Below the pieces are notes generated by a model. The model had not been told where the DNA came from and searched no databases. It worked only from the letters and a program-made list of their open reading frames with translations. Made by a program: the position numbers and the translations under genes. Of a DNA stretch of 64,000 nucleotides, positions 28,796-62,982 are shown piece by piece. Source of the stretch: an uncultured Lachnospiraceae bacterium (GTDB lineage: Bacteria; Bacillota; Clostridia; Lachnospirales; Lachnospiraceae); assembly GCA_964428795.1 (NCBI GenBank), contig CAYRZL010000003.1, forward strand, positions 4,999 through 68,998. The letters run 5' to 3'. Each line of letters opens with the position of its first letter. Positions within the stretch are counted from its first letter, which is position 1.

Positions 28796-28829
28796 TTAAA
28801 AATCAATTAAAAATAAAACAATATAAAAC

Positions 28830-46899: not shown

Positions 46900-48270
46900 A
46901 TGGGCAAGTATTTTGGTACAGACGGTTTCAGAGGAGAAGCCAACAAGACATTGACCGTAGAACATGCGTATAAAGTGGGACGTTTTCTGGGCTGGTACTA
47001 TGGTCAGATCGATGAGGGAAAATGCAAGGTTGTCATCGGAAAAGATACAAGAAGATCGAGCTATATGTTTGAGTATTCACTGGTGGCAGGTCTGACTGCC
47101 TCCGGTGCGGACGTATATCTGCTTCATGTAACGACGACGCCTTCCGTATCTTATGTGGTGCGGACGGAGGATTTTGACTGTGGTATCATGATTTCCGCAA
47201 GCCACAATCCGTTTTATGATAACGGAATCAAGCTGATCAATGGTCAGGGAGAAAAGATGGATGAGACTACCATTTCTTATGTGGAAGCTTATATTGACGG
47301 TCAGCTGGAGCTGTTCGACAGAAAATGGGAGGATATTCCTTTTGCCACCGGCGAGGATATCGGACGTACGGTGGACTATGTGGCAGGGCGTAATCGCTAT
47401 GTGGGCTATCTGATTTCCATGGCTGTCCGTTCTTATCGCGGTATGCGTATAGGGTTGGATTGCGCCAATGGCAGCGCATGGATGATTGCGAAGAATATTT
47501 TTGACGCGCTCGGTGCAAAAACCTATGTGATCAACGCGGATCCGGACGGTACCAATATCAATAAAAATGCAGGATCCACGCATATTGAAGTATTGCAGAA
47601 ATATGTGATAGAAAATAATCTGGATGTAGGATTTGCCTACGATGGAGATGCGGATCGCTGCATGGCAGTGGATGAAAAAGGAAATGTGGTTGACGGTGAT
47701 CTGATCCTCTACATTTACGGGCGTTACATGAAGGAGCGCGGAAAGCTGCTGAATAATACGGTAGTCACGACGGTTATGTCGAACTTCGGTCTGTACAAGG
47801 CATTTGATGAGATCGGGATCGATTATGAAAAGACTGCTGTGGGCGATAAATATGTATATGAAAATATGGTGGCAAACGGACATCGCATCGGCGGCGAGCA
47901 GTCCGGACATATCATTTTCAGCAAATATGCCACCACTGGAGACGGGATTCTGACCTCCATCAAGATTATGGAAGTCATTCTGGAACGTAAGATGCCGCTG
48001 AGCAGGCTGGCGGAGCCTGTGACCATCTATCCGCAGGTGCTCAAGAATGTCCGTGTGCGCAGTAAACCGGAGGCACAGAATGATCCGGATGTGCAGGCAG
48101 CTGTCAGCGCTGTGGCAGAGAAGCTTGGCGATGGAGGACGTATCCTGGTGCGCGAGAGCGGTACGGAGCCGCTGATCCGCGTTATGGTGGAAGCTGAGAC
48201 AGAGAGCGAGTGCGAAAGATATGTGGATCAGGTCATCGAGGTAATCAAAGAGAAGGGATATTCGGTATAA
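46900..48270 (+). CDS. glmM: Phosphoglucosamine mutase
   Basis: 456 aa. N-terminus MGKYFGTDGFRG, phosphoserine loop SASHNP and metal loop DGDADR. Confidence 0.95.
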   Translation: MGKYFGTDGFRGEANKTLTVEHAYKVGRFLGWYYGQIDEGKCKVVIGKDTRRSSYMFEYSLVAGLTASGADVYLLHVTTTPSVSYVVRTEDFDCGIMISASHNPFYDNGIKLINGQGEKMDETTISYVEAYIDGQLELFDRKWEDIPFATGEDIGRTVDYVAGRNRYVGYLISMAVRSYRGMRIGLDCANGSAWMIAKNIFDALGAKTYVINADPDGTNINKNAGSTHIEVLQKYVIENNLDVGFAYDGDADRCMAVDEKGNVVDGDLILYIYGRYMKERGKLLNNTVVTTVMSNFGLYKAFDEIGIDYEKTAVGDKYVYENMVANGHRIGGEQSGHIIFSKYATTGDGILTSIKIMEVILERKMPLSRLAEPVTIYPQVLKNVRVRSKPEAQNDPDVQAAVSAVAEKLGDGGRILVRESGTEPLIRVMVEAETESECERYVDQVIEVIKEKGYSV

Positions 48271-48274
48271 AATT

Positions 48275-50668
48275 ATGAAGTCACAAAACACTACCAGATA
48301 TTTTTCAAGCGTTGTGGTCAGCGCCAGAAATGAGACTCAGCACCTGCATAAGGAAATAGAATTGATTTATGTCATTAACGGAAGCGTCAATGTATTTGTA
48401 TCAGACAACAAGTCCCATTTAAAAGAGGGAGATATTATTCTGATCAATTCCAACACGGTTCATTTTATACAGACTATGGATAAATCAATGATTAGCAATA
48501 TTTATATCTCGTATGAAATGATAAGCAAAATGATGGGGGAAGAGGGCATTGTCTTCTGGTGTAATTCTGTGGGATCGAATGAGACGGAGTATGAAACACT
48601 CTGTGATCTGATCAGGCAGATCATTTTGCTGGAATTGAATAAAAGTTCAGAGCGGATTTTTGAGTTACATGCCAGATATTTTCAGCTGATTGATTATCTT
48701 GTTCAGAATTTTAAGATATCTACTTCCCGATGGCTGGAGAACGCATCCATTACCAATGAACGTTACAAGATACGGGAAGTGTTGGAATATATTGATAATA
48801 ATTATCAGCACGATATCAGCCTGAATATGCTGGCGGATAAGTTATATTTGTCTGCCAGCAGCGTATCGCGTATTTTTAAACGGGAGACTGGCATAAAGTT
48901 TCCGGATTATGTGAATCAGATCCGGCTTCAACACGCGGTTGGCGAGCTGTTGTATACAAATAAAACAATTACGGAAATTGCAGTGGACAATGGCTTTTCG
49001 AGCCCCTCTGCATTTAACCGCATTTTTCGGGATAAATACTCTACTACCCCGACTCAATACAAAAAAAGCATGAGATATGCGATTATTGATGAACGCAGTG
49101 ATCTGACAGATGATGAGAAACAGAAACTGTCTGTTTTTATGGAGAGGCAGCAAAAGTCTTTCAAACAGCCGGATGGGGAGGAGGTCATATATTTTGACGC
49201 AAATACGAAAGAAGTATATCGGCCGGTTGCATGCGGAGCCGTCAGTTTTGGCGCGATCCACAAATTGAGCGACTCAATTATGCAGGAGCATCTCCGGTTT
49301 CTGGCAGACAATCTTCATTTAGAATATGTGCGTATCTGGAACATATTCTCACCGAAATCAATGATAATAGAGGATCTGAAAACCCGTAAGATCAATTTCG
49401 AATATCTGGATCATATCTTTGATTATTTGTTAAGTCTCCGGGTAAAGCCTTATATCGATATGGGCTCGCACCTGGAATGCGTTGTCCTGAACCGGCACGA
49501 AAGTTTATATGATGAAAAGGATACCATTATTTTTGAAAATAAAGAACAATGGGCATACTTTTTTGAATGTTTTATGGAACATATCGTCTTCCGGTACGGA
49601 GAAGAGGAAGTAGGACAATGGGTAATCGAGTTTTCCCGCCTGCCGATTGACGTTTCCTATTATTATGGGGAAACATATTTTGATGTTTTTTGCTGCGGAT
49701 ATCAGATCGTCAAGGAGAAATGTCCGAATTGTAAAGTGGCGGGACCCGGTTGGAGTTTGAACTGGAAAGAAGAACACTGGCGGGAATTGTTTGGAAAATG
49801 GATGGATCAGCCCGCGATTCCGGATATTTTGTCCTTTATCATTCTCCCGTGTCAGGATGATTTTCTGGGAGGCGTTTATGAAAAAAACCGGATTTTTGAC
49901 ATTCAATACATCAAAAACCAGATACATAAAATGAAACAGGCTTTAAAGGATGTCCATTTTCCCGAACGGCCGTTTTATATAGTAGAAATCAGCAGTATGG
50001 TTTCCAATCGGAACTTTTTGAACGATCATCTCGGGAGAGGAACGTATATGATCTGTATGGCGGATCAATTACAGAATGATGTGGATCGGATTTTCACCTG
50101 GATTGCAACTGACCGGGTGGATTTCAAACATGCTCCTGAAGGTCTGCTTCACGGGGGGACCGGCGTTCTGACAAAAGATAAGCTGCCGAAACCCGCTTTT
50201 TACGCAGTGCTTTTCCTGAATAAGCTGGGCAGATATAAAATGGGAAACGGTGTCGGTTATATTGCCACTTCAAAGCTGTCTAAAAGTTTTTACATACTAT
50301 TGTATAACTTCCACAAACTCAGTTACCGGTTCCTCCTGCAGGAAGAAAACCAGATTACTCTTCAGAATCTGGATATGATGTATCAGTATAATAGATGTGA
50401 AACACGGAGTTTTTGTCTGAAAAACCTGGAAGAGGATGCAGAATATGTGATAAAGAGCCGGGTAGTGAATTCGGATCAGGGAAGTGTTCTGGATGAGTGG
50501 AAACGTTTGGGATATGAATCCGATCTTCGCAGCGAAGACATTGCGTATCTGCAAAGCATCTGCAACCCCAGGGTGTATCTGGAACGCAAGACGGCAAAAG
50601 AAGGCGCCATAAGCATGACCGTTACACTTCAGCCGCATGAAATCAGATTGATACATATTTACAGATAA
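48275..50668 (+). CDS. AraC-family transcriptional regulator fused to a glycoside-hydrolase-39-like (TIM-barrel) domain
   Basis: 797 aa. An N-terminal cupin-like sensor, then an AraC double HTH (LADKLYLSASSVSRIFKRETG ... ITEIAVDNGFSSPSAFNRIFRDKY), then a roughly 500-aa C-terminal region resembling GH39 beta-xylosidase-type domains (LEYVRIWNIF ... GQWVIEFSRLP ... FYIVEIS). The position of the GH39 WNEP acid/base motif reads FSRLP. Confidence 0.65.
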   Translation: MKSQNTTRYFSSVVVSARNETQHLHKEIELIYVINGSVNVFVSDNKSHLKEGDIILINSNTVHFIQTMDKSMISNIYISYEMISKMMGEEGIVFWCNSVGSNETEYETLCDLIRQIILLELNKSSERIFELHARYFQLIDYLVQNFKISTSRWLENASITNERYKIREVLEYIDNNYQHDISLNMLADKLYLSASSVSRIFKRETGIKFPDYVNQIRLQHAVGELLYTNKTITEIAVDNGFSSPSAFNRIFRDKYSTTPTQYKKSMRYAIIDERSDLTDDEKQKLSVFMERQQKSFKQPDGEEVIYFDANTKEVYRPVACGAVSFGAIHKLSDSIMQEHLRFLADNLHLEYVRIWNIFSPKSMIIEDLKTRKINFEYLDHIFDYLLSLRVKPYIDMGSHLECVVLNRHESLYDEKDTIIFENKEQWAYFFECFMEHIVFRYGEEEVGQWVIEFSRLPIDVSYYYGETYFDVFCCGYQIVKEKCPNCKVAGPGWSLNWKEEHWRELFGKWMDQPAIPDILSFIILPCQDDFLGGVYEKNRIFDIQYIKNQIHKMKQALKDVHFPERPFYIVEISSMVSNRNFLNDHLGRGTYMICMADQLQNDVDRIFTWIATDRVDFKHAPEGLLHGGTGVLTKDKLPKPAFYAVLFLNKLGRYKMGNGVGYIATSKLSKSFYILLYNFHKLSYRFLLQEENQITLQNLDMMYQYNRCETRSFCLKNLEEDAEYVIKSRVVNSDQGSVLDEWKRLGYESDLRSEDIAYLQSICNPRVYLERKTAKEGAISMTVTLQPHEIRLIHIYR

Positions 50669-50861: not shown

Positions 50862-52076
50862 ATGAAGAAGAGAGTAATTTCTTTGGTATTAGCAACTGTA
50901 ATGACGGCAGGACTTTTTATCGGCTGCGGATCTTCGGATACTTCTGGAACTTCCGAAGAGTCAGCTTCTGTCAATGAAAACAACGAAACAGCGGATTCCG
51001 GTACATCCGGGGAAAGCGGCGGCGAAGGGGAGTTTACAGTCGGTTATAACTATTATGGTTCCGGTTCGTACGCCTTGTTGTCTCTGGCAAACAACTCCAA
51101 ATATGCGATTGAGTATATGGGAGATACGGCAATGGGAACGGATGACAACTTTTCTGTAGAGTCCATGGTGTCCGATATCGAGAACATGATCAATGCGGGC
51201 TGCGATGGCGTCATCGTATGGCTTCCTGTTGACAGTTTATATTTGACTGTTGCAGATATCTGTGAGGAATATGAAGTGCCTTTTGTGTTAAATGATAAAA
51301 TCCCGAGCGATTCTGAAATTCTTGCAGAACTTAAAGAAAATCCATACTTCATCGGCGCTGTTTCACCTGCAAACGCGATTTATGGCGAAGCGATTGCCGA
51401 GTATGCGCTGTCCCAGGGATATAAGAGCTGTATCGTTTCTACGGCAGGCGTAGGAGATCCATCCGATACGCCGCGTCTGGAAGCTTTCCAGGAAGCATTT
51501 GAAGCGGGCGGCGGACAGATTCTGGATATCTTATATGCAGATTCTTCTGATGGTGCGCAGCAGCAGATTGAAGATTCCCTTGTAGCAAATCCAAATCCGG
51601 ATTTCATATATGGTACCGGTTCTGACTATGGTATCGGAGCAGTTGGAGCTCTTTCCAATGCGGGAAACACTGAAACGGCGGTTTTGACATCTGGTCTTGA
51701 CTCCCAGGTTTTACAGTATGCGGCAGACGGAAAAATTGAAATGGTTAACGGTGATTTCTGGGTAGCGGGTTATTTCTCCGCAGTAATCATGGAAGCTTAT
51801 TTACATGGAAATCAGCTTCTGGATGCTGATGGGAACGTTCCGTATATTGATGATATCGAGCCTTTTGATGTTCCCGCAACAGCTATAGACGCATACCAGA
51901 AATGCTTTGTTGATGAGACCTGTTATTCAGAGGAAGAGACACAGGCTCTTGCAAACGGCACATATGATGAATTTATGGATGCAGTAAACAGCTATAGTTT
52001 CAAGGAACGTGTGGAAAAGAAGCTTGCAGACGGCACGATTACAGCTGAGGAGGCTGCGACAGCCGGGGTAGAGTAA
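50862..52076 (+). CDS. Sugar ABC transporter substrate-binding lipoprotein (type I PBP, CUT2/ribose-like class)
   Basis: 404 aa with a strong RBS (AGGAGGGG), a signal peptide plus lipobox (LFIGCGSS) and a Ser/Glu-rich linker. The Peripla_BP_4-like core follows (FTVGYNYYGSG ... DGVIVW ...). Confidence 0.8.
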   Translation: MKKRVISLVLATVMTAGLFIGCGSSDTSGTSEESASVNENNETADSGTSGESGGEGEFTVGYNYYGSGSYALLSLANNSKYAIEYMGDTAMGTDDNFSVESMVSDIENMINAGCDGVIVWLPVDSLYLTVADICEEYEVPFVLNDKIPSDSEILAELKENPYFIGAVSPANAIYGEAIAEYALSQGYKSCIVSTAGVGDPSDTPRLEAFQEAFEAGGGQILDILYADSSDGAQQQIEDSLVANPNPDFIYGTGSDYGIGAVGALSNAGNTETAVLTSGLDSQVLQYAADGKIEMVNGDFWVAGYFSAVIMEAYLHGNQLLDADGNVPYIDDIEPFDVPATAIDAYQKCFVDETCYSEEETQALANGTYDEFMDAVNSYSFKERVEKKLADGTITAEEAATAGVE

Positions 52077-52126
52077 AACAGAACCGGGATTTTTCAAATA
52101 TCCGGATTGAAAAATTCTCACAGTAT

Positions 52127-52159
52127 TTCAGCGGTCTGTGTGTTTCACAGACCGCTGAA
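52127..52159 (+). other. Intra-operon stem-loop after the binding-protein gene
   Basis: Perfect 14-bp stem ttcagcggtctgtg / cacagaccgctgaa with a 5-nt loop and no T-run. Its position after the SBP gene is typical of mRNA-stabilising or partial-termination hairpins in ABC operons. Confidence 0.6.
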
Positions 52160-52177
52160 TGAAAAATGGAGGAAGAC

Positions 52178-53155
52178 ATGGCAAATATTAAAGGCGGGTT
52201 AAAAAACAATCTGGCTGCAAAACGTATTATGCTGATTATTGCAGTTGTTCTTATTTTTGTGGTGGAAAATGCGATAACAGGAAATGCTATGTTTACAGCG
52301 GGAAATATCCAGATAATTCTGATGCATGCCGTATTTCCGGCTTTTGCCGCGTGGGGGATGATGTTCATTTTTACCACAGGACTGATTGATCTGTCCGTGG
52401 GCGCCCAGGTAATTCTGGGAGCAAATATTGGCGCTATCCTTGCTATGGATTTGGGATTGGGTTACGCAGGCCTCATTATCGGCCCAATCGTAGTAGTGAT
52501 TATTTGCGAACAGGTCGTAGTGTTTTGCAATCAGAAATTAAAAATTCCAGGCTGGATCGCCGGTCTGGGATGCGGACTGGTATTTGAGTCGATACTGGTG
52601 ATGTGGTCCACGCAGCGTGCAAAAACAGCCGGGAGCTCTGTAATCACTCTCCCAGAGAATCTGAGAGCGCTCGGGAGATGGCCGGCCATGGTTATTATCT
52701 GGATTGCCGCGCTGGTCATAGCATATTTTATCTATAACAAGACAACGATCGGTATGAATTTGAGAGCTGTAGGCGGCAATGAAAGCGTTGCTTCCGCAAT
52801 GGGTATCAACAAAGGAAAAGCAATTATCCTGGCTGCGCTGGTTGGCGCTTTATTTGTCGGCGTTGGCTCTGTACTGGATATCAGTTATGCGGGTAAACTG
52901 GCGCCGGCCAGTGGTCTTGGTAGCATTTCCACGATTTTTAAAGGTCTGGCGGTGGTTCTTCTGGCACAATCCTTTTCGGCGATCATCAGCGATGCGATCG
53001 GCGTTTTCATCGCGGCGATTTTTATTCAGGGATTATTTAATTTTCTGACAATTATGGGCGTTCCTTCCGGAACCGGACAGGATGTGTTCCTGGGGGTTGT
53101 AGTAATTGCCTGCGGAGTACTGGCAAGACTGAAATATAAGGGGGTGGCTAAATAA
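52178..53155 (+). CDS. Sugar ABC transporter permease (RbsC/BPD_transp_2-like)
   Basis: About 325 aa from the ATG at 52178 (RBS GGAGGAAG). Multi-TM, with the conserved region MNLRAVGGNESVASAMGINKGK. Confidence 0.85.
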   Translation: MANIKGGLKNNLAAKRIMLIIAVVLIFVVENAITGNAMFTAGNIQIILMHAVFPAFAAWGMMFIFTTGLIDLSVGAQVILGANIGAILAMDLGLGYAGLIIGPIVVVIICEQVVVFCNQKLKIPGWIAGLGCGLVFESILVMWSTQRAKTAGSSVITLPENLRALGRWPAMVIIWIAALVIAYFIYNKTTIGMNLRAVGGNESVASAMGINKGKAIILAALVGALFVGVGSVLDISYAGKLAPASGLGSISTIFKGLAVVLLAQSFSAIISDAIGVFIAAIFIQGLFNFLTIMGVPSGTGQDVFLGVVVIACGVLARLKYKGVAK

Positions 53156-54657
53156 TGAAGGATATTGTTTTAAAAGTGGAACACCTCTGTAAATATTTTG
53201 GGGCGACAAAGGCAAATGACGACCTGAATATCGAAATACCGAGAGGATCTGTTCTCGGTCTGGCAGGCGAGAACGGTTCAGGTAAATCCACGCTGGCTTC
53301 CATGATCTGCGGCAACGCGAAACCAACCAGCGGGAAAATGTATTATGAAGACAAAGAGTATGCGCCGAACAGTCTTGTGGATGCAAATAATGCCGGCATT
53401 GCGATGGTTCTGCAGGAACTGGGTGTTGTCGGAAATATGAGTCCGATCATCAATATGTTTCTCGGGAGGACAAATCAGTTTAAAAAAGGGCCGATTCTTG
53501 ATATTGGCGCAATGAAACGCAAGGCAGATGAAACATTTAAAAAATGGGGTCTGACAAAGGTGCCGATGGATGGAGTGGCGGACGCACTTTCCATTGAGCA
53601 GAGAAAGATTCTTGAACTTGCCAGAGCATTATCAGTGAATCCAAAATTTCTGATCCTTGATGAAATTTCCCAGGCTTTGTCCCAGGATAACCGGGATATG
53701 CTGTATAAGTTTATCAAAGATTTTACGGCGCAGGGCGGGACGATCCTGATGGTTACGCATGATTTGGAAGAAATGATGGATGTCTGTACCCATATCAGCG
53801 TACTTCGCGACGGCAGGATTATCGAGACAAAATTAACTTCTGAATACTCCATGGATGAGCTGAAGAGGATGATGATCGGCCGAGAGGTTTCCGGCGATTA
53901 TTACCGTGATGATCAGGAGGAATGCTATCAGGATGAAGTAATTCTTAAGGTGGAAAACCTGAACGTCCCCGAAAAGCTGAAAAACATTAATTTTGAACTT
54001 CACAAAGGCGAGATACTTGGTGTCTGCGGACTTTCAGATGGCGGGATTCACGATCTTGGGCCGGCGTTGTTTGGTATTTCAGAACATCGGACCGGGACTG
54101 TTCGCTGTGTGCTGCATGACCGCGAGTTGAAAAAACCGATGGATATGATCGAATCAAAGGGGGCTTATCTCTCAAAAGACAGAGATGCGGACGGTCTTAT
54201 GCTGAACGCGACTATCGGGCAGAATATTGCCGCGCCAAACGTCCGTTTGCTGAAAAAGAAACTGAGTTTCCTGAGTCCGGCGTCAGTAAATAAGCTTGCG
54301 AATCAGGCGTCAATTGATTTTGAGATCAAATCTTCAGGTCTCGGGCAGGTAGTGAAAAGTCTTTCCGGCGGCAACAAGCAGAAAGTAAATCTGAGCAGGT
54401 GGATGGTACAGGATCTGGATTTTGTCATTCTTGACTGCCCGACACGAGGTGTGGATATCGGTGTAAAGGCATACATCTACGGTGTGTTAAAAGAGTTAAA
54501 GGCGAAGGGCGTCGGTATCATTATGATATCTGACGAGCTGCCGGAGGCGATGGGTATGTCCGATCGATTGCTGATCATGAAAGAACACGAGATGGCCGGA
54601 ATGCTGAGCAGAACCACGGACTTTGTCGAAGATAAGATTGTGGAGGTAATGCTGTAA
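53155..54657 (+). CDS. Sugar ABC transporter ATP-binding protein (fused double-NBD, RbsA/MglA-like)
   Basis: 500 aa. NBD1 has Walker A GENGSGKST and Walker B LILDEIS. NBD2 has a degenerate P-loop (GLSDGGIHD), signature SGGNKQK and Walker B VILDCPTRGVD, which is the usual CUT2 arrangement. The start forms a TAATG overlap with the upstream stop. Confidence 0.9.
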   Translation: MKDIVLKVEHLCKYFGATKANDDLNIEIPRGSVLGLAGENGSGKSTLASMICGNAKPTSGKMYYEDKEYAPNSLVDANNAGIAMVLQELGVVGNMSPIINMFLGRTNQFKKGPILDIGAMKRKADETFKKWGLTKVPMDGVADALSIEQRKILELARALSVNPKFLILDEISQALSQDNRDMLYKFIKDFTAQGGTILMVTHDLEEMMDVCTHISVLRDGRIIETKLTSEYSMDELKRMMIGREVSGDYYRDDQEECYQDEVILKVENLNVPEKLKNINFELHKGEILGVCGLSDGGIHDLGPALFGISEHRTGTVRCVLHDRELKKPMDMIESKGAYLSKDRDADGLMLNATIGQNIAAPNVRLLKKKLSFLSPASVNKLANQASIDFEIKSSGLGQVVKSLSGGNKQKVNLSRWMVQDLDFVILDCPTRGVDIGVKAYIYGVLKELKAKGVGIIMISDELPEAMGMSDRLLIMKEHEMAGMLSRTTDFVEDKIVEVML

Positions 54658-55628
54658 TGAAGAAAAACATATCATATCAGGAGTTTGTTCCATTTATCAT
54701 TTTAGGCGTCATGCTTGTTATCTTCGGTATTTTAACACATGGCTCCATATTCCAGAAATCGAACATGATCAGTATGTTTGATCAGGCATTCTGCATTATT
54801 ATTGCGGGTTTTGGTATGGCATTTGCAACGACTATGGGAGCTACCGATATCACCCACGGAGCATTACTCTGTCTGGCTGCAGGTATTGGTTGTATGGCAG
54901 CGGCGGCAGTAGGCGCCTGGGCAACATTCCCGGTGGCTGTTGCCATTGGTCTCGGATCAGGAGCGTTTCTGGGACTTTGCAATGCAAAGTGGAAAGCAAA
55001 TTCTTTCATGATGTCCCTGGCGATGATGATTGCATTTAAAGCGCTGAACAGTTTGATTTTTGCGAATAACGTAGTATCTGCGCCCAGAGCGTTGAGATTT
55101 ATTGACGGGTTTGTTTTCAAGGTGATTATAGTTGTTATAGTATTTCTCATCATGCTTTACATCTACAATTACACTCCGTATGGTACTTATTTAAAAGGTC
55201 TCGGTGAGAATGAGATTGCCATGAAACATATAGGTATCAGTATTCCCAGAATAAAAATGATTGCATTTATCATTTCCGGCGTGATGTGCGCAATCGCAGC
55301 AGTGTTTAACGCCGTTCGAATTGGCGGTATCAACAACCAGATTGGTACATCGTTCGAAATGAACGTAATGATTGCAATGTTTATTGGCGGAATTCCCGTA
55401 GAAGGAGGTATGAAGTCAAAACTTTATAAACTGATCATCGGTGCATTTACAGTCATTGTTTTGACAAACGGTCTGACTCTTGCAGGCGCCGGAGGCGGTC
55501 TCACACAGTTAATAAAAGGACTGGTCCTTCTGTTTGCCGTCGCTTTGACACAGTTTATGAATACCAAGCTGAGCGCGATCGGACAGCAGGCAGCTGCAAA
55601 TCAGAAGAAATTACACACGGAAGCATAA
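54657..55628 (+). CDS. Sugar ABC transporter permease (second RbsC-like subunit)
   Basis: 323 aa and multi-TM, with the motif YLKGLGENEIAMKHIGISIPRIK. The start forms a TAATG overlap with the ATPase gene stop. Confidence 0.85.
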   Translation: MKKNISYQEFVPFIILGVMLVIFGILTHGSIFQKSNMISMFDQAFCIIIAGFGMAFATTMGATDITHGALLCLAAGIGCMAAAAVGAWATFPVAVAIGLGSGAFLGLCNAKWKANSFMMSLAMMIAFKALNSLIFANNVVSAPRALRFIDGFVFKVIIVVIVFLIMLYIYNYTPYGTYLKGLGENEIAMKHIGISIPRIKMIAFIISGVMCAIAAVFNAVRIGGINNQIGTSFEMNVMIAMFIGGIPVEGGMKSKLYKLIIGAFTVIVLTNGLTLAGAGGGLTQLIKGLVLLFAVALTQFMNTKLSAIGQQAAANQKKLHTEA

Positions 55629-55666
55629 AAAAATTAAGGACATAATAATAGAAAGAGAGGCTTAGT

Positions 55667-56785
55667 ATGGATAAATTAAAAGTGGCAGTGATCGGATGTG
55701 GCGGAATTGCTAACCAGAAGCATTTCCCGGCATTGTCCAATCAGTCGGATAAATGTGAGATGGTTGCTTTTTGCGACATCATCAGGGAACGGGCCGTTGC
55801 CGCCTGTGAAAAATACGGTGCGGAAGGCGCAAAAGTGTACACGGACTACAGGGAATTGCTGAAAGATAAAAGTATTGACGTGGTTCATGTCTGCACCCCG
55901 AATGTCATGCATTGCCCGATTACAGTTGCGGCGTTTGAGGCAGGCAAGCATGTAATGTGTGAAAAACCTATGGCGCATAATACCGAATCAGCCCAGAAAA
56001 TGATGGACGCCTGGAAAAAATCCGGAAAGAAGTTCACGGTCGGCTATCAGAACCGGTTCCGTCAGGATACGCAATTGCTTCATAAAGCCTGTGAATCAGA
56101 TGAATTCGGTGAGATTTATTTTGCAAAAGCCCATGCGATCAGAAGGAGAGCCGTCCCCACATGGGGAGTATTTCCGGATAAGTCCCAGCAGGGCGGCGGT
56201 CCCCTGATTGATATAGGGACACACGCGCTTGATATCACGTTGTGGTGCATGAATAATTACAAACCGGTTTCTGTCATGGGATCTGTTTTTGAAAAGCTTG
56301 GACATTCTGAGCTTGCTGCCCAGGGAAATATGTTTGGACCGTGGGATCCCAAAACCTATGAGGTAGAAGATTCGGCGTTTGGTTTTATTAAATTTGAAAA
56401 TGGGGCAACCATTTTTCTCGAGTCTGCCTGGGCTATTAATATGAAGGACTCCAGAGAGGCTGCCTGCACCCTCTGCGGTACCAAGGGAGGAGCGGAGATT
56501 GTGGGTGAAATGGCCGGAGGAAATGCGACGGGCAGGGAGTATAACCTGATTGTGAACGGAACGTATCATGGAGAGCTTGTTGAACAGCAGATTTCTGAAG
56601 GAGGTTCCATCGCGTTTTTCGAGGGCGGCTCCTCTGAGCCCAAGGATATTGAGTGCAAACAGTGGCTCGAAGCTGTGATCAATGACACAGATCCCTGCGT
56701 ATTACCTGAACAGGCATTTGTTGTAACACAGATTCTGGATGCAATCTACAGATCCGCGGCAGAAGGAAAGGAAATAAAATTATAG
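55667..56785 (+). CDS. Gfo/Idh/MocA-family NAD(P)-dependent oxidoreductase
   Basis: 372 aa. Rossmann N-terminus KVAVIGCGGIANQKH and the family EKP motif (VMCEKPMA). Confidence 0.88.
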   Translation: MDKLKVAVIGCGGIANQKHFPALSNQSDKCEMVAFCDIIRERAVAACEKYGAEGAKVYTDYRELLKDKSIDVVHVCTPNVMHCPITVAAFEAGKHVMCEKPMAHNTESAQKMMDAWKKSGKKFTVGYQNRFRQDTQLLHKACESDEFGEIYFAKAHAIRRRAVPTWGVFPDKSQQGGGPLIDIGTHALDITLWCMNNYKPVSVMGSVFEKLGHSELAAQGNMFGPWDPKTYEVEDSAFGFIKFENGATIFLESAWAINMKDSREAACTLCGTKGGAEIVGEMAGGNATGREYNLIVNGTYHGELVEQQISEGGSIAFFEGGSSEPKDIECKQWLEAVINDTDPCVLPEQAFVVTQILDAIYRSAAEGKEIKL

Positions 56786-56794
56786 TTGTCAGGT

Positions 56795-56820
56795 TTCAGG
56801 CAGCTTTCGGGCTGCCTGAA
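56795..56820 (+). other. Intergenic stem-loop inside the glycoside locus
   Basis: 10-bp stem ttcaggcagc / gctgcctgaa with a 6-nt loop and no T-run. Confidence 0.5.
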
Positions 56821-56837
56821 CAGTTAGGAGAGAATCG

Positions 56838-57752
56838 ATGAAATTAGGATTAGTGAGTGCAATTCTTCCGGAAATGAATTTTGAAGAAATATGTGAGTTT
56901 GCAGGAGAATATGGTATCGAATGTCTCGAGGTTGCATGTTGGCCTGCGGGAAAAGCAGAACGGCGTTATGCAGGGGTCAGTCATATTGATGTAGATCAGT
57001 TGGATGATACCAGTATCAGAAAACTGACGGAATGTTGTGTCAGAAATGGCGTAGAGATTTCTTCTCTGGCCTATTATCCGAATACAATGGATGCGGATAT
57101 TGAAAAGAGGAACAATGCGATCGCACACTTATATAAACTGATCGATGCGTCTGCGCGTCTCGGGGTCAATATGGTCACGACGTTCATAGGAAGAGATTCA
57201 GCCAAAACGGTGGAAGAGAATCTGGATCTTGTCCGGGAGATCTGGCCTCCGATTATCAGATTCGCAGAAGAAAAAGGCGTGAAAATCGCGATAGAGAATT
57301 GTCCGATGTTATTCACGAAAGATGAGTGGCCGGGCGGACAGAATCTGATGACTTCGCCGGTAAACTGGAAAAAAGTATTTGATATTCTGGACAGTCCGAA
57401 TTTGGGAATCAACTATGATCCTTCCCATTTTGTCTGGCAGCAGATAGATTATATCAAGCCAATATATGAGTTTAAAGATAAAATTTTCCATGTACATTAC
57501 AAAGACATTAAGATTTATCCGGATAAACTTCAGGAAGTGGGGATTATGGGCTATCCGCTTGAATATATGACGCCGAAGCTGCCGGGTTTGGGAGACGTGG
57601 ACTGGGGCAAATATGTTTCGGCTTTGACAGATATCGGATATGACGGATTTACCTGTATTGAGATTGAAGATAAAGCTTTTGAAGGAAGCCCTGAAAAAAC
57701 AAAAAAAGCTATTTTACAAAGTCTCGTTTATCTGCGAAATTTTATTTCTTAA
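56838..57752 (+). CDS. Sugar phosphate isomerase/epimerase-family protein (xylose-isomerase-like TIM barrel)
   Basis: 304 aa. AP_endonuc_2/TIM-barrel pattern (IECLEVACWP ... KIAIENCP ... NYDPSHF ... HVHYKD ... CIEIED). Confidence 0.85.
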   Translation: MKLGLVSAILPEMNFEEICEFAGEYGIECLEVACWPAGKAERRYAGVSHIDVDQLDDTSIRKLTECCVRNGVEISSLAYYPNTMDADIEKRNNAIAHLYKLIDASARLGVNMVTTFIGRDSAKTVEENLDLVREIWPPIIRFAEEKGVKIAIENCPMLFTKDEWPGGQNLMTSPVNWKKVFDILDSPNLGINYDPSHFVWQQIDYIKPIYEFKDKIFHVHYKDIKIYPDKLQEVGIMGYPLEYMTPKLPGLGDVDWGKYVSALTDIGYDGFTCIEIEDKAFEGSPEKTKKAILQSLVYLRNFIS

Positions 57753-57771
57753 TATCTGGAAGGAGAGAATT

Positions 57772-58791
57772 ATGTCAAATATCAAATCCGCTGTAAGCCT
57801 GTATAGCTTACAGAACGAATATTTAACAAAAAAAATGAATCTGAAGGAAATCATTCAATATGTAAAAGAATGCGGAGCTCAGGGTGTAGAGATTGTTCCG
57901 GATCAGATGCTGAAAAATGCACCGCATATATCGGATGAGAGCGTTGCCGAATTCAAAGAAGTGATTGCTGAGACGGGACTTACGCCGGTCATTGCAGATG
58001 TTTATTTGAATACGAACCTTTACAAGAACAGAACACTGACACAAAGGGAATGTATCGATCTTTTAATTGATGAGATCAAAATGGCAAATAAGCTTGGTAT
58101 TCCAATGCTTCGTCTTGTTTCCATGGTTCCATACTGGGTATGTGAACCTCTTCTTCCGTACTGTGAAAAATACGGAGTGGTCATTGCATTGGAAGTTCAT
58201 GCTGCAATGGCGTTTGACATTCCTGAAACGAAAGCGTTTATTGAGGAAATGAAGCGACTGAATTCCCCGTATGTCGGGCTTGTGATCGACACGGGAATTT
58301 TCTGCCGGAGATTTCCCAGACGCGTCAGTGCGTATGAGTCTCAAAACGGCACGAATCCGGCTATTTTTGAGTATATGGACATGCTGTTTAAAAAGGGAAC
58401 CGATTTTCATGCAGAGCAAATCCGTTTACAGGGAGCTTTCCCTCCGGAGCTTAAAGACATTGACCTGACGGAGCATGACAAAATGTTTCTTCCGCTCTGT
58501 GATGGTTATGAGAATCTCCCGTTCGAGGTTATGGATGATCTGCTTCCTTATATCAAACATTTTCATTTTAAATTGTTTGAAATGACACCGGAAGGACCGG
58601 AGTATTCTATGGATTACAAAGCCTTGCTTGAATACCTTCATGATCATGACTGGTCGGGATTCGTCGCGACGGAATATGAAGGGAATCGTTTTACGATTCC
58701 GGGGACGCCGTTCGTTGAAAAAGAGCAGGTTGCCGCGAATGTGAAATATGTAAACGAATGTTTAAAAGAAATCCAGGGACAGGAGGGATAA
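57772..58791 (+). CDS. Xylose-isomerase-like TIM-barrel protein, candidate large (alpha) subunit of a C-glycoside deglycosidase-type lyase
   Basis: About 339 aa from the ATG at 57772 (RBS GGAAGGAGAG); the track ORF extension from 57640 overlaps the previous gene. TIM-barrel motifs are GAQGVEIVPDQ, VIALEVHA and LVIDTGIF. A small ORF follows 2 nt later, the arrangement expected for DgpB/C- or CarB/C-type enzymes. Family membership is confident. The specific function is inferred from context. Confidence 0.6.
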   Translation: MSNIKSAVSLYSLQNEYLTKKMNLKEIIQYVKECGAQGVEIVPDQMLKNAPHISDESVAEFKEVIAETGLTPVIADVYLNTNLYKNRTLTQRECIDLLIDEIKMANKLGIPMLRLVSMVPYWVCEPLLPYCEKYGVVIALEVHAAMAFDIPETKAFIEEMKRLNSPYVGLVIDTGIFCRRFPRRVSAYESQNGTNPAIFEYMDMLFKKGTDFHAEQIRLQGAFPPELKDIDLTEHDKMFLPLCDGYENLPFEVMDDLLPYIKHFHFKLFEMTPEGPEYSMDYKALLEYLHDHDWSGFVATEYEGNRFTIPGTPFVEKEQVAANVKYVNECLKEIQGQEG

Positions 58792-58793
58792 AT

Positions 58794-59186
58794 ATGTTTG
58801 ATAATAATGTATTTCTTGAAAATACCTGCAAAAATACAGTAGAAGACGGAAAGGTCATTGGATATGAGATGCAGACAAATATCACCTATTACAGGGGAAT
58901 TCCCATGTCCATGATCGAATATATAAAAGTTGCAGCAGACGGTGCAGAGGTTCCTGAGGAAGATATTCGCATATCCATTGATGAAACAGACTGGTTTACG
59001 CTGAAAGAGGCGGAGACGGTTACGTCTTATAAATGGGAGTACGGTGAACCTTTATATATCCGCGTGATAAAAGAGGGCGGATTAAGCAGGGGAAAGCATA
59101 AGGTAAAGCTTACGGTTGCCACGAGGACTGCGTATATTCCGGTCCCGTTGGAGGGCGTCATGGAGCGTGAAGTTATCATTTCTTAA
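58794..59186 (+). CDS. Small protein (130 aa), candidate beta subunit of a C-glycoside deglycosidase (DUF6379-like)
   Basis: The ATG at 58794 follows a GGAGGG RBS and lies 2 nt after the upstream stop; the track start is 58758. There is no signal peptide and no TM helix. Its size and its position between a TIM-barrel gene and a Gfo/Idh/MocA gene match the described CGD small subunits. Homology was not verified. Confidence 0.5.
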   Translation: MFDNNVFLENTCKNTVEDGKVIGYEMQTNITYYRGIPMSMIEYIKVAADGAEVPEEDIRISIDETDWFTLKEAETVTSYKWEYGEPLYIRVIKEGGLSRGKHKVKLTVATRTAYIPVPLEGVMEREVIIS

Positions 59187-59268
59187 AGGGGTCATACGCT
59201 GAAAATTTTATCTTATGCGTTGAAAGTTTTATTATTCTGTTATGAGAAAAATAAGGAGGAAAAGACAT

Positions 59269-60342
59269 ATGTCGGATATTAGGATTGGCGTTATTGGTCA
59301 TGGCTTTATGGGGCACGAACATGAAACGATGTTGACAGCCATGGACGGTATTCGAGTAGTTGGATTTTCAGACAGAGATCCGGCACAATTGGAGGATGTA
59401 AAAGAAGGATTAAAAAGATATGCTTCCAATGAAGAATTGATAAATGATCCCGAGGTGCAGGTGGTGCTTATCGTCGCAAATAATAATCAGCATCATGATC
59501 TGGTCATTCAGGCGGCGAGAGCGGGTAAAGATATTATTTGTGAAAAACCGGTAGCCATGAATGTGGCGGAACTGGATGAAATGATGAAAGTCGTTGAAGA
59601 ATGCGGCGTTAAATTCACGGTGCATCATCAGCGGCGCTATGATCAGGATTTCCGCACGATGAAGGAAGTGTATGATTCCGGCGCCCTGGGCGATGTATAT
59701 ATGGTAAAGAACAGTCTTTACGGGCATAATGGGAATATGCATGACTGGCACGTATATATTGCTGAAGGAGGTGGTATGCTTTTTGACTGGGGCGTTCATC
59801 TTCTGGATCAGGTTCTATGGATGTTTCAGGGTTCAAAGATTCAGTCGGTATATGCAGATGTGCGCAATGTCATCAATTTTGAAGTAGATGATTATTTTAA
59901 AATCCTGCTGCGTTTTGATAACGGCATTATGGCTGAAATCGAGCTGGGAACGTACTTTCTGGCAGATAAGCCGCAGGACAAATGGTTTGAACGCCATTGG
60001 TTCATGGGCGGAAACAAAGGAAGCGCTTATGTCGATGGATTTGAACCGGAAGGAAAGATCGTCCGGACTACAAGATTGCTTCAGAATGTGGGCGGAAAGA
60101 GAACAATGACGGCAGCCGGACCGACAAGATCCTTTGGACCTCCGGAGCCGGGCAAGATTATAACGGAAGCGCTTCCAAAGGTAAATACACGGCACGAAGA
60201 TTACTTCGAAAATTATAAGAAGGCTTATCGGGGAGAGGAGGAATTCCTTGTTAAAATACCTGAGACAAGAAGGGTTCTTGCCTTGATGGAAGCAGTCAGG
60301 GAGTCTGCCCGAACCGGCCGATCAGTTGATTTCGAAACATAA
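59269..60342 (+). CDS. Gfo/Idh/MocA-family oxidoreductase (second copy; DgpA-like candidate)
   Basis: About 357 aa from the ATG at 59269 (RBS AAGGAGGAA). Rossmann N-terminus IGVIGHGFMG and the EKP motif (IICEKPVA). Confidence 0.85.
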   Translation: MSDIRIGVIGHGFMGHEHETMLTAMDGIRVVGFSDRDPAQLEDVKEGLKRYASNEELINDPEVQVVLIVANNNQHHDLVIQAARAGKDIICEKPVAMNVAELDEMMKVVEECGVKFTVHHQRRYDQDFRTMKEVYDSGALGDVYMVKNSLYGHNGNMHDWHVYIAEGGGMLFDWGVHLLDQVLWMFQGSKIQSVYADVRNVINFEVDDYFKILLRFDNGIMAEIELGTYFLADKPQDKWFERHWFMGGNKGSAYVDGFEPEGKIVRTTRLLQNVGGKRTMTAAGPTRSFGPPEPGKIITEALPKVNTRHEDYFENYKKAYRGEEEFLVKIPETRRVLALMEAVRESARTGRSVDFET

Positions 60343-60352
60343 GGGAGGCAAT

Positions 60353-61300
60353 ATGAAAAAATATGCTTTTGGTGTAGATATAGGCGGAACTTCCGTAAAA
60401 ACAGGATTGTTTGAGACCGGCGGATTATTATTGGAATCCTGGGAAATACCAACCCGTACAGAAAATAACGGGGAGGCAATTCTGCCTGATATCCATGAGG
60501 CCATTGCAGCTAAGCTTCGGGAGAAAAGAATAGCTATTGACAACGTGGAAGGGATTGGACTTGGCGTTCCCGGACCGGTAAGTGAAGAAGGAATTGTCTT
60601 AAAATGCGTGAATCTGGGATGGGGCATTTTTAATGTAGAAAAAGCTATGGGTCAGTTGTTCAATGGCTTGAGAGTAAAGGCCGGAAATGATGCGAATGTT
60701 GCCGCCCTTGGCGAAATGTGGCAAGGCGGTGGAAAGGGATTTAAGGATATCGTCATGGTGACTCTTGGAACCGGCGTTGGCGGGGGCATCATCATTGATG
60801 GGAAAATTTTGCCCGGTGCGAATGGCTCCGCTGGTGAAATCGGACATATTACAGTATCTGATAATGAAAAGGAGCAATGCGGCTGCGGCAAATGCGGATG
60901 TCTGGAACAGTATGCGTCAGCCAATGGAATCGTTTTTGCTGCAAGGAGGTATCTTACGGAACATCCGGAGGAGAAAACGCCTCTTCGGGATGTGGAAAAA
61001 CTTACCTCGGTTGAAATATTTGATTTTGCGAAACAGGGAGAGCCTGTTTCACTGAAAATAGTGAATGATACATGCCGCATTCTGGGAAAGAACCTTGCGA
61101 CAATCGCCTGTGTGTTGAACCCGCAGGCTTTCGTGATTGGCGGAGGCATGTCAAAAGCAGGAGACATATTGATTGACGGTATTAAACAGAATTACCGCAG
61201 GTACGCATTCCATGCGTCCAGGGAAACAGAATTTTACAAGGCAAAATTGGGGAACAATGCAGGCATGTATGGAGGAGTTAAAATGTTGATTTCCGGTTAA
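60353..61300 (+). CDS. ROK-family sugar kinase (glucokinase-like)
   Basis: About 315 aa from the ATG at 60353 (RBS AAGGGAGG). ATP site GVDIGGTSVK, ROK signature and zinc motif GHI...CGCGKCGCLE. Confidence 0.88.
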   Translation: MKKYAFGVDIGGTSVKTGLFETGGLLLESWEIPTRTENNGEAILPDIHEAIAAKLREKRIAIDNVEGIGLGVPGPVSEEGIVLKCVNLGWGIFNVEKAMGQLFNGLRVKAGNDANVAALGEMWQGGGKGFKDIVMVTLGTGVGGGIIIDGKILPGANGSAGEIGHITVSDNEKEQCGCGKCGCLEQYASANGIVFAARRYLTEHPEEKTPLRDVEKLTSVEIFDFAKQGEPVSLKIVNDTCRILGKNLATIACVLNPQAFVIGGGMSKAGDILIDGIKQNYRRYAFHASRETEFYKAKLGNNAGMYGGVKMLISG

Positions 61301-61435
61301 GACCGACGGATCTTTAATGAAGATATTCTGGACAAATATTCAACGGGTGTTAAAATGTATTTGTAAGCAGGAATGCATTCCGATAATCAGAGAAGAAAAA
61401 ACAGAATATCAATTCATTAGAGAAGGAGGAGAAAA

Positions 61436-62383
61436 ATGATAAAGAAAATCACGGTCGTTGGAGCAGGCACCATGGGACATGCCATTGCAAACACCTTTGC
61501 CATGCATGGATTTGCGGTAAATCTGTACGAATCCTTTGAGGAAGTCCGGTCATCTGTGTTGGAAAAGATTCGGGGCGAGCTGGAATTTATGGTGGAACAG
61601 GAGTACATATCCGGCGAAAAGGTGGAGGAGACGCTTGCGAATATTACTCTGTATGAAGATTTGAAAGAGTCAGTAAAAGAGGCGGATTATGTGATCGAGG
61701 CAACGCCGGAAGATCTGGAATTAAAACAGCAGTTATTTGCACAGCTGGATCAATTCTGCCCGGAGCATACGATATTCGGAAGCAACACCTCCAGTCTGAA
61801 ATTAGGAGATATGATGGAAGGGCTGCCGGCGAAGCGGAAGGCAAAAATGATGATCTGTCACTGGTTCAATCCGGCACATCTGATGCCCATTGTGGAGTTG
61901 TCTTATTTTGGAAATATGCCGGAGGAGGATTTTGAACAAGTCTACGAATTGTACAAGGTGTGTGAGAAGGTGCCAGTCAAAGTATTGAAGGATATTCCGG
62001 GTATGATAGCGAACCGCATTCTTCATGCTCAGGCGCGGGAGGTTTTTTATCTGAACTCCATCGGGGCGGCGTCCCCGGAGGATATCGACAAAGCTCTGAT
62101 GTTTGGTCCCTGCTTTCGCAATGCCACCACCGGAATGCTGGAGGTGGCAGACATGGGAGGGCTGGACGTCTGGGTCGCAGCGGAGGAAAATTTTTTACCG
62201 ACACTGTGTAATTCCACAAAGTCAAATGACACGATGCGGGCGCTGGCAGCGGAGGGTAACCTCGGTATCAAGACAGGAAAAGGATTTTATGAATATCCCA
62301 GGGAGACAAGGGAGGAATTAGTAAAAGAATTTAATAAACGTCTGATCACGCAGTTGAAAGCGAGCCGGACATTCCGAAAATAA
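61436..62383 (+). CDS. 3-hydroxyacyl-CoA dehydrogenase-family NAD-binding protein (HBD / L-gulonate-3-dehydrogenase-like)
   Basis: 315 aa with RBS AGAAGGAGGAG. Rossmann N-terminus ITVVGAGTMGHAIA, plus conserved 3HCDH_N and 3HCDH_C regions (SNTSSL, HWFNPAHLMPIVE). Confidence 0.8.
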   Translation: MIKKITVVGAGTMGHAIANTFAMHGFAVNLYESFEEVRSSVLEKIRGELEFMVEQEYISGEKVEETLANITLYEDLKESVKEADYVIEATPEDLELKQQLFAQLDQFCPEHTIFGSNTSSLKLGDMMEGLPAKRKAKMMICHWFNPAHLMPIVELSYFGNMPEEDFEQVYELYKVCEKVPVKVLKDIPGMIANRILHAQAREVFYLNSIGAASPEDIDKALMFGPCFRNATTGMLEVADMGGLDVWVAAEENFLPTLCNSTKSNDTMRALAAEGNLGIKTGKGFYEYPRETREELVKEFNKRLITQLKASRTFRK

Positions 62384-62432: not shown

Positions 62433-62462
62433 AAATGGAGTCTGCAAAGACTCCATTTGTTT
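62433..62462 (+). terminator. Rho-independent terminator ending the glycoside locus
   Basis: 10-bp stem aaatggagtc / gactccattt with a 6-nt loop, followed by a T-rich tail (TTTGTTT). Confidence 0.75.
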
Positions 62463-62499: not shown

Positions 62500-62982
62500 A
62501 TGCTAAAATATTTAAAATTAAAGTTTCTGTTTGGAAGGCAGGAAAGCGTAGTGGACGAGCAATTAGAACTGGCATTAAAAGGCGGGGACTTCAAACGCCT
62601 GATGGAAAGCCGCTTTTCGGTGATAAAAAAAGAATATAATTTAAAAAAGGTGGACATTGAAGTATTGTATTATCTTTCAAAGTGCACGGAGGAGAATACG
62701 CCGACTGACATTTACCGGAGACTGAAGCTGAACCGCGGGCACGTATCACAGGCCATCGATTATCTGTACCGCAGGGAGCTGATTACTGCGATACCGGATA
62801 AAAAGGACAGGAGATATATGCATTATCTGGTCACTGACAGCGCGAAAGTTATCATAGCGGAGATCTCAAAAACAAAAAGAGAGCTGGGGGAACAGATTTT
62901 TAAAGGCCTTTCCCGGGAGGAAATAGCCGCTTATCAGAAAACAACAGAGAAAATCTTCAGAAATATTCATGAACTGCTCTGA
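62500..62982 (+). CDS. MarR-family transcriptional regulator
   Basis: The winged-HTH region (IEVLYYLSK ... TPTDIYRRLKLNRGHVSQAIDYLYRRELI ... DRRY) fits MarR. The start is uncertain: the ATG at 62500 has no RBS, whereas the GTG at 62551 follows GGAAGGCAGGAAAG. Confidence 0.75.
   Translation: MLKYLKLKFLFGRQESVVDEQLELALKGGDFKRLMESRFSVIKKEYNLKKVDIEVLYYLSKCTEENTPTDIYRRLKLNRGHVSQAIDYLYRRELITAIPDKKDRRYMHYLVTDSAKVIIAEISKTKRELGEQIFKGLSREEIAAYQKTTEKIFRNIHELL

Follow-up and report, generated by a model that had tools for sequence, protein, structure and literature searches.

The 64,000-nucleotide stretch of DNA analysed here (the window; contig CAYRZL010000003.1 of an uncultured Lachnospiraceae bacterium) carries an operon-like cassette which, with a probability of about 0.8, serves the oxidative (3-keto) deglycosylation of aryl C-glucosides, and probably of related O-glucosides as well. 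The cassette encodes a predicted two-subunit C-glycoside deglycosidase (CGD), two oxidoreductases of the Gfo/Idh/MocA family (Gfo1 and Gfo2), an extra TIM barrel (TIM1) and a ROK-family kinase, and the gene of an HBD-like dehydrogenase follows it. These genes are as follows.

55667 to 56785, + strand: Gfo1, DgpA-type glycoside 3''-oxidoreductase by sequence (Pfam PF01408, PF02894 and PF22725; PDB 7XR9, DgpA)
56838 to 57752, + strand: TIM1, extra xylose-isomerase-like TIM barrel, candidate 2-hydroxy-3-keto-glucal (hexose enediolone) hydratase (Pfam AP_endonuc_2, E = 5e-39, full-length domain)
57772 to 58791, + strand: predicted CGD alpha subunit (DgpC/CarB type), 339 amino acids (PDB 9M3B_A, E = 8e-123)
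58794 to 59186, + strand: predicted CGD beta subunit (DUF6379/CGDB), 130 amino acids (Pfam PF19906, E = 8.6e-38)
59269 to 60342, + strand: Gfo2, second Gfo/Idh/MocA oxidoreductase, DgpA2 type by sequence (same domain set as Gfo1; PDB 9M37/9M39)
60353 to 61300, + strand: predicted ROK-family glucokinase (NCBIfam TIGR00744; Pfam ROK, E = 2e-63)
61436 to 62383, + strand: HBD-like dehydrogenase of the 3HCDH family, probably a TfD-type (S)-3-hydroxycarboxylate dehydrogenase; a local addition outside the conserved cassette

The small subunit matched PF19906 over the entire profile (positions 1-112 of 112) at 129.1 bits (cut-off 27.6). Its best match in the PDB was 9M3B_B, deposited as 'P581a DgpB1' (E = 5e-46, 59% identity), while 7BVR_B and 7BVS gave E-values of 5e-16 and 3e-8, respectively. 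The 339-residue TIM barrel had eight PDB matches, all of which were CGD alpha chains or CGD-type fusions, namely 9M3B_A ('P581a DgpC1'), 8QVC, 7BVR and 7XRF (DgpC of strain PUE; 7BVR_A, E = 1.4e-33), 9M3A, 7DNM (CarB type, 2e-19), 7BVS (DfgA, 3e-18) and the beta-alpha fusion 8QRZ. The active site was inspected in an alignment of alpha with DgpC of strain PUE, rebuilt from a printed alignment, and 40 genome homologues, and invariance was scored over 43 sequences. All seven metal or catalytic columns, comprising the Mn-ligand positions E141, D173, H265, K267 and E301 and the catalytic positions H143 and E303 of alpha, were invariant. The equivalent residues of AgCGD2 are the Mn ligands E147, D179, H269, K271 and E305 and the catalytic H149 and E307, and mutagenesis by Mori et al. 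demonstrated that all seven were required for activity (PMC8563793). Sequence comparison thus established the family of both subunits and the conservation of the active site. An earlier note on this DNA, made from the letters alone, had regarded the two open reading frames (ORFs) as the TIM-barrel and small subunits of a CGD, and had proposed a comparison of the small protein with DUF6379 and a check for Mn-binding Glu/His/Asp residues in the barrel. Both points turned out as it expected: the small protein resembles CGD small subunits over its full profile, the barrel matches CGD alpha chains and fusions exclusively, and the full set of metal ligands and catalytic residues is present.

As alpha was 54-55% identical to P581a DgpC1 (9M3B) and only 27-28% identical to DgpC of strain PUE, it was placed in another clade than the latter; judged by sequence, the lyase belongs with the 'DgpB1C1' CGDs and outside the puerarin-specific PUE clade. 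The predicted activity of the alpha/beta complex would be cleavage of the C-C bond of 3''-oxo-C-glycosides. The start codon of beta lies 2 nt past the stop codon of alpha on the same strand, and no second CGD pair was found in the 64-kb window. The longest ORF for alpha begins at 57640, but the ATG at 57772, preceded by a GGAAGGAGAG ribosome-binding site, agrees with the N-termini of alpha homologues. The N-terminus of the beta ORF (MFDNNVF) is identical to that of chain B of 9M3B.

Comparison with solved structures likewise established the family of both oxidoreductases. Gfo1 showed 64% identity over 360 residues to DgpA of strain PUE (7XR9, E = 1.7e-158) and 61% identity to 9M3D, 'DgpA1 from W974-1', and on these values is a DgpA orthologue. 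Gfo2, read from 59269, matched 9M37/9M39, titled 'P581a DgpA2 and isoorientin complex', with 55% identity (E = 1.6e-132) in an alignment beginning at residue 4. Both proteins retain the family motifs EKP and D-x(3)-H, and GGGPLIDIGTH is visible in Gfo1. The scores of both against the curated NCBIfam models of inositol dehydrogenases, levoglucosan dehydrogenases and Bacteroides 3-dehydrogenases were far under the cut-offs. The earlier note had pointed to a Gfo/Idh/MocA enzyme as the source of the 3-keto-glycoside, and a DgpA orthologue is indeed present within this operon. The note had also seen a second oxidoreductase/isomerase pair; these genes are real, but they do not form a separate pair, as Gfo1 is of DgpA type, Gfo2 of DgpA2 type and TIM1 AtHYD-like, and all are members of the one cassette. 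DgpA holds NAD tightly, uses 3-oxo-glucose as the hydride acceptor and oxidises its substrates regiospecifically at the 3'' position (PMC10539306, PMC11239390). By likeness to DgpA, recycling of bound NAD and 3''-regiospecificity would be expected of Gfo1 and Gfo2. Judging from the title of the PDB entry alone, DgpA2-type enzymes would also act on C-glycosides, probably with a different substrate preference. Gfo2 may be a dedicated 3-keto-glucose reductase, and we infer some division of labour between Gfo1 and Gfo2.

With alpha as the query, a scan limited to one genome for each species identified 76 related loci, and alpha and beta were adjacent in all of them. The core cassette is widespread among gut Clostridia and also occurs in Enterococcus and Streptococcus. 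The hosts include Mediterraneibacter, Petralouisia, Butyricicoccus, metagenome-assembled genomes of Faecalibacterium type, Oscillospiraceae, Enterococcus, Streptococcus, Neobacillus and Catenibacillus. Gene content was counted in those 49 loci that span 18 kb or more, considering genes within 10 kb of the pair. A Gfo1 orthologue was detected in 30 of the 49, TIM1 in 29, Gfo2 in 22 and a ROK kinase of at least 50% identity in 12, and Gfo1, TIM1 and Gfo2 occurred together in 22. A homologue of the AraC/GH39-like regulator described below lay upstream in 30. Two abundant TIM1 homologues, picked independently of alpha, sit in the same cassette. Dozens of unrelated genomes thus have the same gene set next to their alpha/beta pair, which rules out a chance arrangement. 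The gene order is freely permuted among the homologous cassettes; the earlier note had remarked that the order here was unlike that of the published clusters, and it does differ from that of strain PUE. In some loci, such as L063 and L071, one Gfo1/TIM1/ROK set is accompanied by two to four alpha/beta pairs, which suggests that specificity lies in the pair and that the other genes are shared machinery. Locus L071, of Candidatus Enterococcus huntleyi, encodes the genomic protein closest to P581a DgpC1 (86% identity). An apparent alpha-beta fusion in locus L009 and over-long alpha ORFs were discarded as artefacts of tblastn extension past stop codons.

Beyond the set common to the cassettes, an FMN_red-family gene was observed inside the cassette in loci L089 and L090, and a third Gfo/Idh/MocA gene, followed downstream by genes of a GH4 6-phospho-glucosidase and a phosphotransferase system (PTS), in L087 and L088.

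The extra TIM barrel was compared with the PDB by means of a profile built from 22 orthologues. The first match was 2ZDS (SCO6571, uncharacterised; 2e-20), followed by 8RO4, AtHYD (5.8e-9), and ketose epimerases appeared first at 7e-4 in the same search. AtHYD is the Agrobacterium 2-hydroxy-3-keto-glucal hydratase of Bitter et al. (PMC10628242), and the motifs DPSHFVxQ, HxKD, GDVD and ExE are common to TIM1, 2ZDS and AtHYD. An AlphaFold (AF2) model of TIM1 (pLDDT 83, pTM 0.86) was searched against the PDB with Foldseek, in which 2ZDS scored 1.8e-17 and 8RO4 ranked third (1e-13, TM 0.70, 18% identity). In both searches, no characterised protein came closer to TIM1 than AtHYD. Profile-profile comparison identified TIM1 and the CGD alpha subunit as paralogues with 95% probability, with the metal Glu/Asp/Glu positions aligned; Cys155 of TIM1, two residues past the first metal Glu, stands where alpha carries its catalytic His. 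The TIM1 family maintained more than 70% identity across the 120 best database matches, all titled 'sugar phosphate isomerase/epimerase', while the accompanying alpha/beta pairs dropped to 45-50%. Strong conservation of TIM1 beside diverging pairs would fit an enzyme acting on the sugar product, which is the same in every cassette. As of 2023, no enzyme of the PUE system had been assigned to the conversion of hexose enediolone into 3-oxo-glucose (PMC10539306). From the sequence profile and the structural model, we give the assignment of TIM1 as a 2-hydroxy-3-keto-glucal hydratase slightly better than even odds.

The HBD-like gene had no homologue in any of the 76 alpha-seeded loci, nor in the TIM1-seeded loci. 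Its product was under all Hbd/FadB cut-offs of NCBIfam (the best, PRK05808, 189 bits vs 408), and the CoA-binding Lys56 of clostridial Hbd is replaced by Tyr57, with Hbd Asn221 apparently retained. A relative with 77% identity, on three contigs (P0003; L083-L085), is encoded between a sigma-54 activator plus a BKACE gene on one side and a cyclase-family gene on the other, and a 63%-identical relative on 269 contigs (P0040) between a sigma-54 activator and a BKACE gene; loci L079-L082, with 63% relatives, have the BKACE gene and no called cyclase gene. In the phloroglucinol cluster of Clostridium scatologenes, TfD is the (S)-3-hydroxy-5-oxohexanoate dehydrogenase, DPGC the cyclase and TAL the BKACE protein; TfD was annotated there as 'putative 3-hydroxyacyl-CoA dehydrogenase', and the cluster was reported in E. 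ramulus too (PMC10470551). The HBD-like protein, compared by the described residues, is like CsTfD a 3HCDH-family protein without Lys56, and its 77% relative is flanked by TAL-like (BKACE) and DPGC-like (cyclase-family) genes; it differs in apparently keeping Asn221, which CsTfD lacks. Because its relatives sit in a phloroglucinol-type arrangement, the protein is, as far as sequence tells, most likely a TfD-type 3-hydroxy-acid dehydrogenase, located beside the cassette only in this lineage and not a step of sugar removal. Homologues of the DPGC-like and TAL-like genes were not found in the 64-kb window. A loose functional tie is conceivable, as phloroglucinol derives from the flavonoid A-ring. 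In L083-L085, genes of a Chalcone_N chalcone isomerase and a glyoxalase-family protein were also observed about 4 kb off, a neighbourhood resembling flavonoid catabolism.

Alternative roles for these two proteins have to be weighed at this point. TIM1 could instead be a second eliminase with another anomeric or aglycone specificity, or it could epimerise or isomerise intermediates of the 3-keto or 2-keto sugar type. The fold search does bring ketose 3-epimerases close to AtHYD, the enzymes BT2/AL2 and BT1/AL1 each perform elimination plus hydration, and TIM1 has weak IolO/IolE-like matches in NCBIfam. In the sequence profile, however, AtHYD is far ahead of the epimerases and shares DPSHFVxQ with TIM1, the high conservation of TIM1 across cassettes with divergent alpha/beta pairs fits an aglycone-free substrate, and Cys155 takes the place of the catalytic His of CGD alpha. 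We therefore consider these other activities unlikely, and the hydratase remains our preferred assignment. Much less credible is the idea, put forward in the earlier note, that the HBD-like dehydrogenase is a working part of the pathway and acts on a keto-sugar product. The gene is co-oriented and begins 135 nt past the ROK gene, a terminator-like hairpin follows only after its own stop codon, and the protein weakly matches L-gulonate 3-dehydrogenase/lambda-crystallin (3F3S, 114 bits). These points are outweighed by its absence from every homologous locus, by the sigma-54 activator and BKACE genes (and, for the 77% relative, the cyclase-family gene) adjoining its closest relatives, and by the redox balance that the pathway attains without it; a promoter-like site also lies within the 135-nt gap, although the scan that found it was no better than on shuffled sequence. 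Such a role was thus judged highly improbable, and this part of the earlier note did not stand, whereas its core of C-glycoside lyase and oxidoreductase and its role for the ROK kinase did. What the present analysis adds to it is the conserved six-gene cassette, the hydratase-like TIM1, the recurrent AraC/GH39-like regulator and the reassignment of the last gene.

The remaining features of the locus and its immediate downstream neighbour are listed below.

48275 to 50668, + strand: AraC/GH39-like regulator, 797 amino acids, with an N-terminal cupin and helix-turn-helix (HTH) and a C-terminal GH39-like domain (Pfam AraC_binding, HTH_18, Glyco_hydro_39)
50862 to 52076, + strand: substrate-binding lipoprotein of a CUT2-type ATP-binding cassette (ABC) importer (Pfam Peripla_BP_4, E = 6e-23; N-terminal lipobox LFIGC)
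52166 to 53155, + strand: ABC permease 1 (PF02653 BPD_transp_2); the start is 52178 in the public gene call
53155 to 54657, + strand: ABC ATPase, 500 amino acids (PF00005); its start overlaps the stop of the permease 1 gene
54657 to 55628, + strand: ABC permease 2 (PF02653)
62433 to 62458, no strand: hairpin with an 11-bp stem, the first strong terminator-like structure past the co-oriented run
62500 to 62982, + strand: MarR-family regulator (Pfam HTH_27, MarR), a neighbour with no counterpart in related loci

The gene boundaries were reproduced by an independent gene call on an identical public contig (L077, Logan assembly of SRR10165008), so that the positions and + strand given in the earlier note were all borne out; the upstream CUT2 importer it had described, at 50862-55628, is also real, with a binding protein, two permeases and an ATPase. 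All genes from 50862 to 62383 have one orientation and are separated by gaps of 2-135 nt or joined by stop/start overlaps. As housekeeping genes (FtsEX, a CtpA-type protease, GlmM, a class A penicillin-binding protein and glutamine synthetase III) lie further upstream, the locus was taken to start with the regulator at 48275. Scans for promoters and terminators gave no excess over the shuffled expectation, and the hairpin and promoter-like sites are therefore descriptive only. In Rfam, the 64-kb window matched a single family, a tRNA at 37659-37730 (- strand); neither riboswitches nor leaders were detected in the locus.

The ROK protein passed the cut-off of the glucokinase model TIGR00744 (293.3 bits, cut-off 260.35), which established its family and fits the proposal of the earlier note that it could phosphorylate the released hexose. 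Among the related loci, the importer was shared only with L009; other cassettes have an MFS_2/GPH symporter (L087-L090) or PTS components (EIIC/EIIA, L071), and the transporter is therefore an exchangeable module. Besides the 30 full-length loci mentioned above, both TIM1-seeded loci (L087-L090) have a homologue of the AraC/GH39-like protein upstream. This 797-residue protein would act as the sensor-regulator of the cassette, its GH39-like domain probably being a ligand sensor rather than a glycosidase. Unusually high GH39 counts were reported for Catenibacillus genomes (PMC11170127), and recurrence of this regulator could explain them.

A pathway can be proposed from these assignments, with the order of the steps, the hydratase role and the substrates drawn by analogy from the literature. 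The glycoside would be sensed by the AraC/GH39-like regulator and imported by the CUT2 ABC system, and its glucosyl 3''-OH would be oxidised by Gfo1 and/or Gfo2 with tightly bound NAD. The Mn-dependent alpha/beta lyase (57772-59186) would then break the C-C bond by beta-elimination to release the aglycone and 2-hydroxy-3-keto-glucal, to which TIM1 would add water to form 3-keto-glucose. The NADH form of the oxidoreductase would reduce 3-keto-glucose to glucose in a ping-pong manner, as in DgpA, and the ROK glucokinase would trap the glucose as glucose-6-phosphate. The net reaction would be C-glucoside + H2O + ATP -> aglycone + glucose-6-phosphate + ADP, which is redox-neutral. The oxidise-eliminate-hydrate scheme follows Nasseri et al. 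(bioRxiv 10.1101/2024.03.25.586180), and ping-pong reduction of 3-keto-glucose was described for DgpA (PMC10539306, PMC11239390) and for the Bacteroides/Alistipes enzymes (bioRxiv 10.1101/2024.03.25.586180).

Among known systems, the gut isolates P581a and W974-1 provided the best matches for four window proteins with their DgpA1, DgpA2 and DgpB1-DgpC1 (PDB 9M37, 9M39, 9M3A, 9M3B and 9M3D). These enzymes are about 55-60% identical to those of the window, come from another host lineage and have substrates known from the entry titles only. The L071 Enterococcus cassette has the same Gfo1-Gfo2-TIM1-ROK-alpha-beta set, but with PTS components and a second alpha/beta pair, whereas in the window one pair is accompanied by a CUT2 ABC importer and the TfD-like gene. 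DgpA and DgpB-DgpC (PuCGD) of strain PUE share the three-protein chemistry, the alpha/beta folds and all metal and catalytic residues; they differ in gene order and, with alpha at 27-28% identity and beta at E = 5e-16, their puerarin specificity is not transferable. DfgA-DfgB/DfgE of Eubacterium cellulosolvens and CarB-CarC of soil actinobacteria are also two-subunit Mn lyases acting on 3-oxo-C-glycosides, although they are much further from the window proteins than the DgpB1C1 clade, and the Car system uses CarA, an FAD oxidase, with O2 instead of a Gfo/Idh/MocA enzyme (PMC11239390). The Bacteroides BT2156-2160, Alistipes AL1-4 and Agrobacterium GlycDH-AtOGE-AtHYD systems likewise oxidise C3, eliminate, hydrate, reduce and recycle bound NAD. 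They differ from the present one in that they do not cleave C-glycosides and have no DUF6379 subunit; in addition, the Bacteroides hydratase is a DUF1080 jelly-roll and not a TIM barrel, and the Bacteroides/Alistipes enzymes are largely periplasmic, while the window proteins lack signal peptides except for the binding lipoprotein. As every feature of a CGD and DgpA-type system that can be checked in a sequence was found here, the locus was assigned to this system. It is a further example of a described one, as its chemistry, its lyase of two subunits, its DgpA partner and the DgpA1/DgpA2/DgpB1C1 naming can all be found in the PDB already; the sequence itself is not already known, with 54-64% identity to the nearest characterised proteins as compared here.

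Several points weigh against the reading of the locus as a C-glucoside deglycosylation cassette. All its enzymes are at most 64% identical to any protein with biochemical data; alpha and beta share 54-59% identity with the closest pair of known structure, and alpha 27-28% with DgpC of strain PUE, too little for a substrate to be named. The role of DgpA2 rests on the title of a PDB entry, no paper for 9M37-9M3D having been found. The relation of TIM1 to AtHYD is remote (18-19% identity), and ketose 3-epimerases are nearly equal to it in Foldseek (2.7e-13 vs 1e-13). The usual ligand of a CUT2 importer is the size of a monosaccharide, and in most homologous cassettes the transporter is of the MFS_2/GPH or PTS type. 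Finally, PuCGE also cleaves 3-keto-O-glucosides, so that the natural substrates could be O-glycosides (PMC10628242).

This last point leads to a competing explanation in which the same machinery performs general non-hydrolytic cleavage of O-glucosides (or S-glucosides) and accepts C-glycosides at best as minor substrates. The alpha/beta lyase would then work as a beta-eliminase of O-glycosides, and its natural targets could be O-glucosides of flavonoids or small aryl glucosides. PuCGE accepts both the 3-keto-O- and the C-glucosides, and O-glycosides are far commoner in plants (PMC10628242); a Dorea homologue of DgpA oxidises many O-glucosides (PMC11239390), and O-/S-glucuronides are cleaved with the same chemistry by a Gram-positive cluster that encodes two oxidoreductases and two isomerases. 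On the other hand, 3-keto-O-aryl-glucosides largely self-eliminate (PMC11239390), and the O-specific enzymes AtOGE and BT1/AL1 are single TIM barrels without a DUF6379 subunit, whereas His143, needed for C-C cleavage according to Mori et al. (PMC8563793), is invariant in alpha, and the nearest solved relatives were deposited alongside an isoorientin complex. We consider a primary function in O- or S-glucoside cleavage improbable on balance. An ordinary inositol or ketose catabolic locus, with IolG/IolE/IolI-like enzymes and a sugar ABC importer, has a next to negligible likelihood: the weak NCBIfam matches that would speak for it (iolG, 110 and 147 bits; iolE, 39 bits; rhizopine binding protein, 20 bits) are far under the curated cut-offs of 355, 290 and 420 bits, respectively, and no scanned protein passed the cut-off of a model for a later inositol step. 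By contrast, the beta subunit of family PF19906, the orthology of Gfo1 to DgpA and the active site of CGD type are specific to C-glycoside deglycosylation, which we retain as the probable function of the cassette.

The GlmM protein encoded in the window (46900-48270) shares 85% identity with its counterpart in Eubacterium ramulus, so the DNA probably comes, on this sequence likeness, from an uncultured relative of this flavonoid degrader (PMC10470551, PMC11170127). Elsewhere in the window, a perfect tandem duplication was observed, with 25793-28654 identical to 28610-31471 (period 2817 nt). It yields two identical genes for 880-residue surface proteins with choline-binding repeats (26153-28795 and 28970-31612), which adjoin a 1219-residue paralogue (22319-25978), and is either a very recent event or an assembly artefact.

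Orientin, vitexin, puerarin, mangiferin and other C-glycosyl polyphenols withstand ordinary glycosidases, and how far they are taken up and become bioactive in the gut depends on bacteria with systems of this kind. The present locus adds no new kind of chemistry; it adds an uncultured relative of E. ramulus as a candidate C-deglycosylating organism, and places the DgpA/DgpBC chemistry in a wider six-gene cassette that represents a testable model of the whole pathway. As a signature in metagenomes, the cassette is more specific for C-deglycosylating bacteria than DgpBC alone. We also propose, tentatively and at somewhat less than even odds, that TIM1 would be the hydratase still missing for C-deglycosylation in Firmicutes, making the cassette a self-contained redox-neutral module to which the importer and the TfD-type gene were added in this lineage. 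If this is true, the module and the TfD-type dehydrogenase would physically link the removal of the sugar to the catabolism of the flavonoid A-ring (phloroglucinol).

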